64,000 bases of DNA. It comes from Plasmodiophora brassicae (lineage: Eukaryota). The stretch covers positions 310,001-374,000 of the forward strand of contig CP145423.1 in the NCBI GenBank assembly GCA_036867785.1, written 5' to 3'. Position numbers and translations under genes: made by a program. Position 1 is the stretch's first letter. The number at the start of each line of letters is the position of its first letter. The notes below the pieces were generated by a model that searched no databases, had not been told where the DNA came from, and saw only the letters and a list, made by a program, of their open reading frames with translations. This document shows, one piece after another, positions 44,202 to 46,017 of this stretch.

Positions 44202-46017
44202 TCACCGAACAATGAGGGCAAAGAGAAGGCTGGCGACAGTGGTACAGGCTAGAGCGGATGATATCATCCGCTGTTGACGAAGCGTTTCTCTCAGGGTGGC
44301 ATCGGACCGGCGCGATTCCTCCTTGACAGCGTACAGTTCAGTGCGCAAGGCGTCCAGGAACGCTTTGTCTTGCGACAGGCCGGCCTCGGCAGCCTCGAGC
44401 TGCTTGGAGAGCGCGGCGACGACGAGGTCGTGGCTGCTGACGAGCTGCTCGCTGTTTTCCCGGAAGACTCGTTCTGAATCCAGGCGCTCCTTCTTTTCCT
44501 GCTGGACCTGCTCACGAAGGACCCGGATTTGCTCAGCGGTTTCAGCTGCGCGATCAGTGAGGCGTTTCTCGGCCGTTTCCTCGACACGCGCCTTCTCCTC
44601 TGTCGCGGCCGCCAGCGCCATAGCACCGCTCGCGGCCAGCTTCTCATTGTGTTCCCGAAGAATGCGTTCGCTTTCCAGACGTTCCTTCCGCTCTTGCTGA
44701 ACCTGTTCCCGAAGAATGCGAATCTGGTCGGCACTCTCTGCCGCCCGCTGAGCAAGCCGCTTCTCAGCCGACTCGTCCGACTGCGCCTTCTCTTGCTTCA
44801 CAGACGCCAGCTGAGCACGAAGCTCTTCGCACGTGCGGCTTTGCAACGTAAGGCGCTCAGCGAACTCTTCCTCGACACGCTGCCTTTGCAGAACCGCACA
44901 GTGGTCGCGCTGCTCCAGGCACTGCCTCGCCGTCTCCTTCAAGTACACGCCAAGGGCTGTTGGTGTTGTTAGGACTCGGTCACACACCTGCCCGAGAAGA
45001 ACGGCATCTTCCGCATGGCCTAACAAGAGGTACTACGGTCAGCAGTCGGATCAAGCCTGGCCATCGCTCAGCGGACCAATGGCTGCCACCAATGGCGAGT
45101 TGATTTGCAGGGCGGCTTCGGCGAGATCGACGTCATCGAACGCATTCAACCCGGATCCTCCGCCGCGAACAATGCATACGACATGATCCTTGACGTCATC
45201 CGCATCGGCGCTCCTCATCGCGTTCGCGATCTGCTCCGGGTCCTGCATGTTGACCCGGACGAAATCCAACGTGAAGTGCATCTGACAGGGTTCCAGCGCT
45301 TTGATCACGTCCTGGTCCACGATACTGTTCTCGCCCGTTATCATTGTGACCGTCGGTTTCCGCCCTTCGTGCAACGCCGTTCCTACATGAGGCGCAACAC
45401 TCAGAATGGGTGTTTGAGCGTCAGCCTGACAGCGCGCGCGTACGTAGAGTCAAGTCGACGTTGGCCCTCCGTCTCTGTGTGCTTTTCCGTAAGACGTCGA
45501 TCGTTCGTCGCTCCTTCTCCGTCAGCGCCTGCGGCGCCGACTGATGCTCGATCTGCGTCACCTCGAATATCAACTGCAGCGTGCAATTCTCCATGGCCTT
45601 GCGGTTCAGGTACCCGCGGAACACGCACGAGTGCCCGTTGGGCAGCGATTGCCGCATCAGGTCGGGCAGGCGCACCGTGATCCCGATATCCGCCTCGAAC
45701 GGATCCACCAGCCGGTCGTACCAGAACGGCGACCCCGACACTTGATACGGGCGCTTGCCGACCTTGGACAGGATCCCGCCGAGGACCATGTTCGGATCAT
45801 GGTCGACGGCGGGCACGACCTCAATCGACTTCTGGAACACTTCGCGCAGCGTCTGACACACGGGGCCCGTCAGCGAGTCGCAACGGGTACACAAACGGCG
45901 GATGCGGGCGCGCGCCACCTTTGGGGTGAACCGCCTGGCCGCAGCAGCAGTAGCGGCGGGGCGAACGGTCGGCGCGGTCGACGAGAACCGCCTGGCGACC
46001 ACTATCAGGACCCGCAT
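44202..46017 (-). CDS. xseA: Exonuclease VII large-subunit-like nuclease with predicted mitochondrial presequence, coiled coil and C-terminal TM anchor; 4 exons
   Basis: Spliced catalytic motifs VCIVRGGGSGLNAFDDVDLA and SPLVAAIG|HAEDAVLLGQVCDRVLTTPTALG; OB-fold-like N-domain; introns 45853-45918, ~45383-45443 and ~45020-45076. Confidence 0.8.

Follow-up and report, generated by a model that had tools for sequence, protein, structure and literature searches.

An exonuclease VII-like gene with three spliced introns in Plasmodiophora brassicae and its mostly bacterial, putatively membrane-anchored relatives

Exonuclease VII (ExoVII), with its subunits XseA and XseB, is viewed as a two-subunit bacterial enzyme. 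What, then, is an XseA-like gene with three introns doing in the genome of a eukaryotic crop parasite, where did it come from, and could its product work as a single chain? These questions are raised by a 64,000-nt (64-kb) stretch of DNA from the clubroot parasite Plasmodiophora brassicae (NCBI GenBank assembly GCA_036867785.1, contig CP145423.1, positions 310,001 to 374,000), hereafter the window, numbered from its first letter, which carries such a gene at 44202-46017 on the minus strand. We argue that this is a verified, spliced, intron-bearing eukaryotic member of the XseA superfamily, and that it draws attention to a large, membrane-tethered bacterial subfamily apparently working without XseB. 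The explanation in its entirety, by which a nuclear gene derived from bacteria would encode a membrane-tethered nuclease of this superfamily that acts without XseB on mitochondrial DNA (mtDNA) at the inner membrane, has in our judgment about an even chance of being correct.

The gene, its transcripts and the XseA-type head of its product

The gene consists of four exons, which give a spliced coding sequence of 1632 nt, from the ATG at 46017-46015 to the TGA at 44204-44202, and a protein of 543 aa. A first-pass annotation, made from the letters alone, had proposed three GT-AG introns within one frame of ~540 aa, and the exact coordinates bear this out: the introns, of 66, 61 and 57 nt, are all GT-AG on the coding strand (CT..AC on the plus strand), and among the public contigs on 44000-46200 each of them is exactly skipped in one contig per run in X1, X3 and X4, the runs belonging to three separate studies. 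The contig of a DNA-like run, X15, is unspliced and continuous across 44243-45920. Intron-less contigs in three studies, together with an intron-containing one in a fourth run, form the pattern expected of spliced transcripts; the P. brassicae nuclear gene is real and expressed. To be set on the other side of the scale is the labelling of X1, X3 and X4 as 'RNA?', their RNA status being a guess, since no run found to contain the gene is recorded as RNA. A two-intron model (565 aa) was replaced by the present one once the transcript contigs showed three skipped segments.

The word-based search with exon 3 led to a database protein of P. brassicae, P0001 (543 aa, named 'Exonuclease VII large...' in NCBI and UniRef), from which the window protein differs at 6 of 543 positions (15, 142, 426, 449, 494 and 498), all outside the catalytic core; hence, the window represents another isolate of P. 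brassicae. The genomic setting is that of a nuclear gene. The flanking genes are eukaryotic, namely, a RING-finger gene at 46176-47258 on the minus strand and a WD40 or DCAF-like gene at 42766-44337; the GC content of the window is 54-64%; and the database contigs that carry the P0001 protein are up to 891 kb long. The NCBI name line of P0001 is tagged '(mitochondrion)', which looks like a record-level label and carries no localisation evidence; in view of the GC content, the spliceosomal introns and the RING and WD40 neighbours, the tag is not evidence of organellar coding.

The product belongs to the XseA superfamily, because sequence, motifs and fold agree. The profile check suggested in the first-pass annotation yielded for P0001 a match to Pfam PF02601 (Exonuc_VII_L) of 80.7 bits (cut-off 35.9, E 1.8e-22) over residues 180-414, with 46 bits for the exon 3 piece alone. 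The XseA motifs described there are intact: RGGG (R242-G245), FD, AIGH (H273) and TPT. In an AlphaFold model derived from an alignment of 18 rows (mean predicted local distance difference test score, pLDDT, 81.6; residues 1-26 disordered), the strands of an OB barrel (residues 55-138) precede an alpha/beta domain (180-288) and helices at 291-402, 405-485 and 490-542. What had been noticed as an OB-fold-like block is an OB fold at residues ~48-141, supported by the model together with structure searches, in which it matches PriB, LysRS and MCM. The best structural match is E. coli ExoVII, PDB 8TXR, with a Foldseek E of 8.4e-16 for 8txr_A and, for 8txr_B, a VIA Z of 18.5 and a root-mean-square deviation of 8.0 over 250 aligned residues (model residues 48-323); the structural rows next after the 8TXR chains, at VIA Z ~11, cover the OB fold only. 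Furthermore, D155, R205, H238 and D241 of E. coli K-12 XseA, which are reported as required for activity on the basis of mutagenesis (PMC3439923), align with D194, R242, H273 and D276 of the P. brassicae protein.

The kinship with ExoVII proper has its limits. P0001 fails the xseA equivalog profile of NCBIfam, TIGR00237 (cut-off 180 bits), with 77.3 bits, and six other membrane-anchored or eukaryote-type proteins score 56.6-95.5 bits, as compared with 257 and 472 for the canonical P0024 and P0171; P0001 is also without a match to PF13742. Since P0001 falls below the equivalog cut-off, 'ExoVII-like' is a better name than 'ExoVII': of the identity first proposed, membership in the superfamily stands and equivalence to XseA does not. 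With canonical XseA, as represented by 8TXR, PF02601 and TIGR00237, the protein shares the succession of OB fold and catalytic domain, the catalytic D/R/H/D set, the RGGG...GHxxD signature and, according to the AlphaFold model, an extended run of helices beyond the catalytic domain. It differs in lacking the C-terminal beta-barrel dimerisation domain, in place of which a transmembrane (TM) helix ends the chain; E. coli XseA is reported to dimerise by this beta-barrel, located after the helical tail (PMC10835039). Canonical XseA is, moreover, described as having quantised XseB-binding units (PMC10835039), whereas in the membrane-anchored subfamily discussed below the stalk ranges from a short Pro-rich linker to ~200 residues.

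Along the four exons, these parts are arranged as follows. Exon 1 (45919..46017) supplies 33 codons, for the basic, acid-free extension (residues 1-30), a candidate mitochondrial presequence, and for the 3 residues that open the conserved body. Beyond intron 1 (45853..45918), through which the X15 contig reads to 45920, exon 2 (45444..45852) encodes the conserved N-terminal helix, the OB fold (about 45529-45810) and linker helices. Intron 2 (45383..45443) separates it from exon 3 (45077..45382), which encodes the N-terminal portion of the XseA catalytic domain, including D194 at 45309-45311 and R242 at 45165-45167. Intron 3 (45020..45076) splits the codon for G272 of the AIGH motif, and exon 4 (44202..45019) provides the remainder: H273 (45015-45017), D276 (45006-45008) and TPT, then the helical stalk (residues 291-522, 44268-44963) and the C-terminal TM helix (residues 524-542, 44208-44264), followed by R543 and the stop codon. 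A probable 3' untranslated region occupies 44156..44201, the X3 and X4 transcript contigs ending at 44157 and 44156, although contig ends are no proof of a transcript end.

The long helical region and the C-terminal hydrophobic tail ending in R, both of which had been pointed out beforehand, are thus present, the model being helical from residue 291 to 542. The tail comprises the last 20 residues, with a Kyte-Doolittle (KD) hydropathy of 2.17 over 19 aa and then a single Arg. The stalk contains an internal duplication of 61 aa, with residues 342-402 corresponding to residues 407-467 (44628-44810 and 44433-44615; ~60% protein identity, 127 of 183 nt identical). The duplication was found by comparison at the protein level and escaped at the DNA level: Tandem Repeats Finder reported nothing in the gene, and a repeat search returned only a weak 33-nt pair.

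A membrane-anchored subfamily and its relation to XseB

Which proteins are the relatives of this one? A search with residues 30-330 retrieved 26 relatives among 3117 candidates, and an exhaustive HMMER search 1830 representatives at E<=1e-3, with 371 at <=1e-10 and 58 at <=1e-30. The close matches are proteins of 300-500 aa from Anaerolineales, Ardenticatenaceae, Gracilibacteria and Bacteroidota, as well as from many metagenomic sources. They are characterised by an N-terminal (H/Y)TPxxLxxxF helix, an OB motif YxGYYYDxLxDE, and the signatures IVRGGGxGLExF, AIGHAxD and TPTALG; after TPTALG comes a segment of very variable length and then a C-terminal TM helix. A C-terminal hydrophobic window is found in 149 of the 169 collected proteins, and likewise in P0001; the 20 exceptions are mostly canonical outgroups, proteins of <310 aa, or cases in which the strongest hydrophobic window is more distant from the C-terminus. 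A short Pro/Thr-rich linker takes the place of the stalk in P0004 and P0008, too short to accommodate the tandem XseB-binding units that canonical XseA has.

P0001 has the subfamily motifs, the XseA core and the single C-terminal TM helix (alignment A1) and so falls within the subfamily. Compared with bacterial members such as P0008 (from an Anaerolineales metagenome-assembled genome, MAG), P0013 (from a Gracilibacteria MAG) and P0020 (Paraflavitalea pollutisoli), it shares the whole architecture and the motifs at a core identity of 25-37%, and it differs in the basic 30-residue extension on its own exon, the three introns, a longer, duplicated stalk and a less hydrophobic TM helix. The last difference extends to all three eukaryote-type proteins, with KD values of 1.75-2.17 as compared to a median of 2.64 in 155 bacterial-type proteins. 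The first-pass annotation had pointed to a stand-alone bacterial subfamily with a short OB domain, nuclease, coiled coil and TM segment; such a subfamily does exist, and it comprises the closest kin of the P. brassicae protein. The membrane-anchored layout defines a large, mostly bacterial and distinct subfamily that is apparently undescribed: in the open literature, supplementary files aside, we found no membrane-anchored XseA, nor any XseA in plasmodiophorids or diatoms, beyond one proteomics table. In scans of metagenome contigs and viral contigs profile A3 found no match, and that one scan showed no phage-borne member. One member of the subfamily is labelled by JGI as an 'ElaB/YqjD/DUF883 family membrane-anchored ribosome-binding protein', and two others, P0038 and P0085, have N-terminal extensions of ~190-220 residues, the start of which appears HRDC-like by eye only.

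The relation of these proteins to XseB can be approached through the genomes that encode them. Among Bacteroidota, four genomes (G001, G002, G213 and G273; two reached via P0020 and two more via a profile search of 301 Bacteroidota genomes) have the membrane form as their sole PF02601 match, with neither a canonical XseA nor a PF02609 (XseB) match. A fifth carrier, G024, in which the membrane form is a partial match at a contig end, also has no XseB match. Since XseB is found in 256 of the 301 sampled genomes, the chance that the four in-sample carriers, including the partial G024, would all lack it is ~4e-4 by a hand calculation that ignores kinship. That the carriers have no match to XseB, and four of them none to canonical XseA, points to a membrane form that works independently of XseB and may replace the canonical enzyme. 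As for P. brassicae, the first-pass annotation had seen no xseB nearby, and a profile of 7 XseB sequences from Bacteroidota agrees, its best match in the 64-kb window having an E of 0.64, as against 4e-37 and 5.5e-39 for two held-out XseB loci that served as positive controls.

Eukaryotic relatives and the origin of the gene

The P. brassicae gene is not alone among eukaryotes. P0028, labelled by NCBI as hypothetical protein ACA910_004364 of the diatom Epithemia clementina, and P0002, which is 64% identical to it, group with the P. brassicae protein with support 96 in a FastTree tree of 157 rows, that is, the 169 collected proteins minus the exon-1 fragment P0027, four near-duplicates of P0008 and all proteins of <290 aa. 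In a careful IQ-TREE analysis (LG+C20+F+G4 PMSF) of 43 hand-chosen rows, covering the FastTree neighbourhood of the query, representatives of other clades and three canonical outgroups, the same trio is recovered at 98/95 and nests inside the membrane-anchored subfamily, which is split from canonical XseA at 100/100. The two diatom-type proteins, the sister group of the P. brassicae one, agree with it in the order of their domains, in a basic extension at the N-terminus and in a TM helix at the C-terminus, and they share rare residues with it, e.g., RE in the first helix, FEVTQ and TGEN. At four rarity thresholds, 3, 7, 10 and 12 rare residues are common to the trio, as compared with maxima of 2, 5, 7 and 10 in 64 control pairs. 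They differ in a core identity of ~35%, in Ser/Thr-rich extensions of 137-177 residues and in other stalk sequences, and are known here from the proteins alone.

We consider the bacterial origin of the gene by horizontal transfer to be well supported by these comparisons. The notion of a horizontally acquired, intron-bearing gene put forward in the first-pass annotation holds in that the gene is of bacterial type, nuclear and interrupted by spliceosomal introns; it requires amendment in that, given the other eukaryotic relatives, the transfer may predate P. brassicae or the gene may have passed between eukaryotes. In a 2012 domain study, the sole XseA of a eukaryote to be considered, that of Caenorhabditis remanei, is treated as a possible contamination (PMC3439923). 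A single eukaryotic acquisition, followed either by vertical inheritance within SAR (stramenopiles, alveolates and Rhizaria) with losses or by transfer from eukaryote to eukaryote, appears somewhat more likely than two independent transfers.

Could the gene, then, be an old eukaryotic one, acquired once by an early member of SAR or from the mitochondrial ancestor, lost widely, and kept in phytomyxids and some diatoms? The support for the trio in both trees and its sharing of rare residues in excess of all 64 control pairs speak for such a history. Yet among the best 150 of the 1830 matches there is only one other eukaryote-type cluster, P0001 is no closer to the diatom-type proteins (35-36% identity) than to its best bacterial relative (37%), and leave-one-out trees place either partner, once the other is removed, without support. 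In view of the leave-one-out result and the similar identities, long-branch attraction or two transfers from similar donors may lie behind the grouping, and we regard an old eukaryotic gene as rather unlikely. A further doubt, that the gene is an artefact of a false model or of contaminating bacterial DNA in the assembly, could draw on the bacterial nature of the closest relatives and on the odd '(mitochondrion)' label. It is effectively refuted by the removal of three spliceosomal introns in contigs of three studies, and the eukaryotic RING-finger and WD40 genes on either side, the long database contigs and the recurrence of the gene in another isolate with 6 substitutions leave this option a vanishingly small probability.

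Localisation, gene neighbourhoods and possible function

Where in the cell might the protein act? The N-terminus, MRVLIVVARRFSSTAPTVR...RRF, was described in the first-pass annotation as Arg/Ser/Ala-rich and presequence-like, and as a feature this is accurate: the first 30 residues include 6 R/K, 8 Ala and no D/E (net charge +6), and acidic residues appear only from position 37 onwards. The hydrophobic moment reaches a maximum of 0.70, a weak indicator by itself. Homology to bacterial proteins begins at F30-T31-P32 (alignment A1), the extension being absent from the bacterial relatives, and intron 1 lies three codons past this point, which fits a targeting peptide recruited on an exon of its own. 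The extensions of P0002 and P0028, of 177 and 137 residues, are likewise basic and, by eye, have no hydrophobic signal-peptide core. A basic extension combined with a weakly hydrophobic C-terminal helix fits a protein that is imported by way of a presequence and whose helix then arrests in the inner membrane. We give a little over one half to this mode of insertion, with the head in the matrix; its main rival is a tail anchor that would leave the head facing the cytosol.

The following scenario can be envisaged. After horizontal transfer from bacteria, the gene would have gained three spliceosomal introns and the basic extension on its small exon. The 30-residue extension would serve as a mitochondrial presequence, the soluble head of OB fold and nuclease domain would be imported into the matrix, and the weakly hydrophobic C-terminal helix would arrest in the inner membrane, such that the bacterial topology would be kept, with the head on the side equivalent to the cytoplasm. 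There the stalk would hold the head at a fixed distance from the membrane, and the enzyme, without XseB, would trim single-stranded DNA (ssDNA) ends or end-blocking adducts of mtDNA. The mitochondrial ssDNA nucleases MGME1 and Exo5, known from other eukaryotes, have unrelated folds and no membrane anchor; the likeness to the proposed role, namely the trimming of single-stranded mtDNA ends, is a hypothetical functional analogy only. As regards the bacterial enzyme, E. coli ExoVII is reported to digest ssDNA from both ends (PMC10835039), and ExoVII is reported to have a role in the removal of trapped gyrase (PMC7929499).

Gene neighbourhoods in bacteria offer a further, if mixed, indication of function. 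Nine loci were scanned with Pfam (L001, L002, L012, L013, L017, L020, L021, L023 and L025); L018 and L024, which repeat the layouts of open reading frames in L017 and L025, were left out, L019 and L022 were too short, and PADLOC was applied to the neighbours in L001 and L002 only. DNA-repair neighbours occur in three of the nine. In L013 (3806-10754), ImuB-like, DnaE2-like and AlkB-like genes lie directly upstream of the XseA-like gene; in L017 (509-8158), a DnaE2-like gene and a three-domain LigD are found upstream, the end of LigD overlapping the XseA-like start; and in L020 (778-3668) Ku is encoded 0.9 kb downstream. Neighbours in L002, L012 and L025 are uninformative. We read the neighbourhoods as favouring DNA-end processing or repair, with defence-linked use possible in some lineages. 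The defence-type neighbours, in four of the nine loci, include GmrSD in L017, an HNH gene in L021, and HNH, KAP NTPase and DUF4238 genes in L023. In L001 (Paraflavitalea pollutisoli), a complete retron type VI pair (6897-9092; HTH_VI, E 2.1e-26; RT_VI, E 2.8e-61) lies directly upstream, and the end of its reverse transcriptase gene overlaps the XseA-like start by 11 nt; the three genes together may represent a variant retron. Close by are a fragment of an IS66 transposase and an HNH-like PDC-M68A gene. The reading of the bacterial family as retron effectors was not adopted, as only one of the nine scanned loci shows a retron. With PADLOC defence models, P0001 matched 0 families, and the matches of its relatives are confined to the helical and TM tails and mostly weak (best E 6.3e-06).

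Several considerations weigh against a matrix-facing nuclease that acts without XseB. Purified E. coli XseA is reported to be inactive alone, a strand of XseB completing the nuclease fold (PMC10835039), so that activity without XseB is a reading of genome co-occurrence; for P. brassicae the absence of XseB is read from the 64-kb window. The presequence reading, plausible as it is, is one of composition, and the C-terminal anchor with its basic residue would also suit tail anchoring in the outer mitochondrial membrane or the endoplasmic reticulum (ER). To these may be added the low support (79/79) for the trio's bacterial sister group, and thus for any one donor lineage, and the mixed, partly defence-type neighbourhoods just described.

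Two other explanations, one of topology and one of activity, have to be weighed. A single C-terminal TM helix with a short basic end is the classic layout of a tail anchor, and the moderate hydropathy of this one, with its one basic residue, would suit a protein whose head faces the cytosol or nucleoplasm from the outer mitochondrial membrane, the ER or the nuclear envelope, where it might repair nuclear or cytosolic DNA or clear stray or foreign ssDNA, the extension being no presequence. The occurrence of some bacterial relatives in defence-type loci (the retron in L001; GmrSD, HNH and KAP NTPase genes in L017, L021 and L023) would agree with such a reading, whereas the lack of a PADLOC match for P0001 would not, and the argument from bacterial neighbourhoods to a defence role in P. 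brassicae is a weak one. All three eukaryote-type proteins, furthermore, have gained basic N-terminal extensions, which a pure tail-anchor pathway does not require; perhaps one chance in five or slightly better belongs here, less than to matrix import. Alternatively, nuclease function may have been lost, leaving a membrane-tethered ssDNA-binding or structural protein, e.g., a tether between nucleoid and membrane, as the expansion of the long stalk by the internal duplication and the reported inactivity of canonical XseA without XseB (PMC10835039) might suggest. But the four catalytic residues, RGGG...GHxxD and TPT are kept in P. brassicae, in both diatom-type proteins and in the bacterial relatives, and the 6 differences between isolates all avoid the catalytic core, which makes a loss of activity quite improbable.

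If the activity and the localisation proposed here are true, the protein would be a minimal single-chain ExoVII suited to mechanistic work, an instance in which a repair nuclease from bacteria was adapted to an organelle by the addition of a presequence exon, and a candidate factor of mtDNA maintenance in an unculturable crop parasite and in diatoms. A still wider scenario, doubtful in our estimation, would see the bacterial membrane proteins as an XseB-independent, ExoVII-type class of end-processing enzymes that replace canonical ExoVII in some lineages and operate at the membrane together with non-homologous end joining (LigD/Ku) and ImuB-DnaE2; one ancient transfer to an early SAR eukaryote would then have given rise, in phytomyxids and some diatoms, to a mitochondrial inner-membrane nuclease for ssDNA ends and DNA-protein adducts, in a role taken on by unrelated enzymes in animals and fungi.

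A few observations concern the surroundings of the gene and its product. Proteomics of Arabidopsis under infection is reported to include an 'Exonuclease VII large subunit' of P. brassicae, CEO98624, which may be the product of this gene, among the proteins that vary in abundance with pathogen load (PMC12135032). Long open frames without a Pfam match lie nearby at 38125-39396, 39715-41163, 49350-50291, 50467-51801 and 52408-54015. From the stop of the same-strand, upstream RING-finger gene to the ATG there are only ~158 nt (46018-46175), and the X1, X3 and X4 transcript contigs span both genes, which points to overlapping untranslated regions or to neighbouring transcripts merged in assembly. 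This RING-finger gene is one of two open frames with C-terminal C3HC4 RING fingers, less than 10 kb apart, the other being at 36834-37664 on the plus strand.

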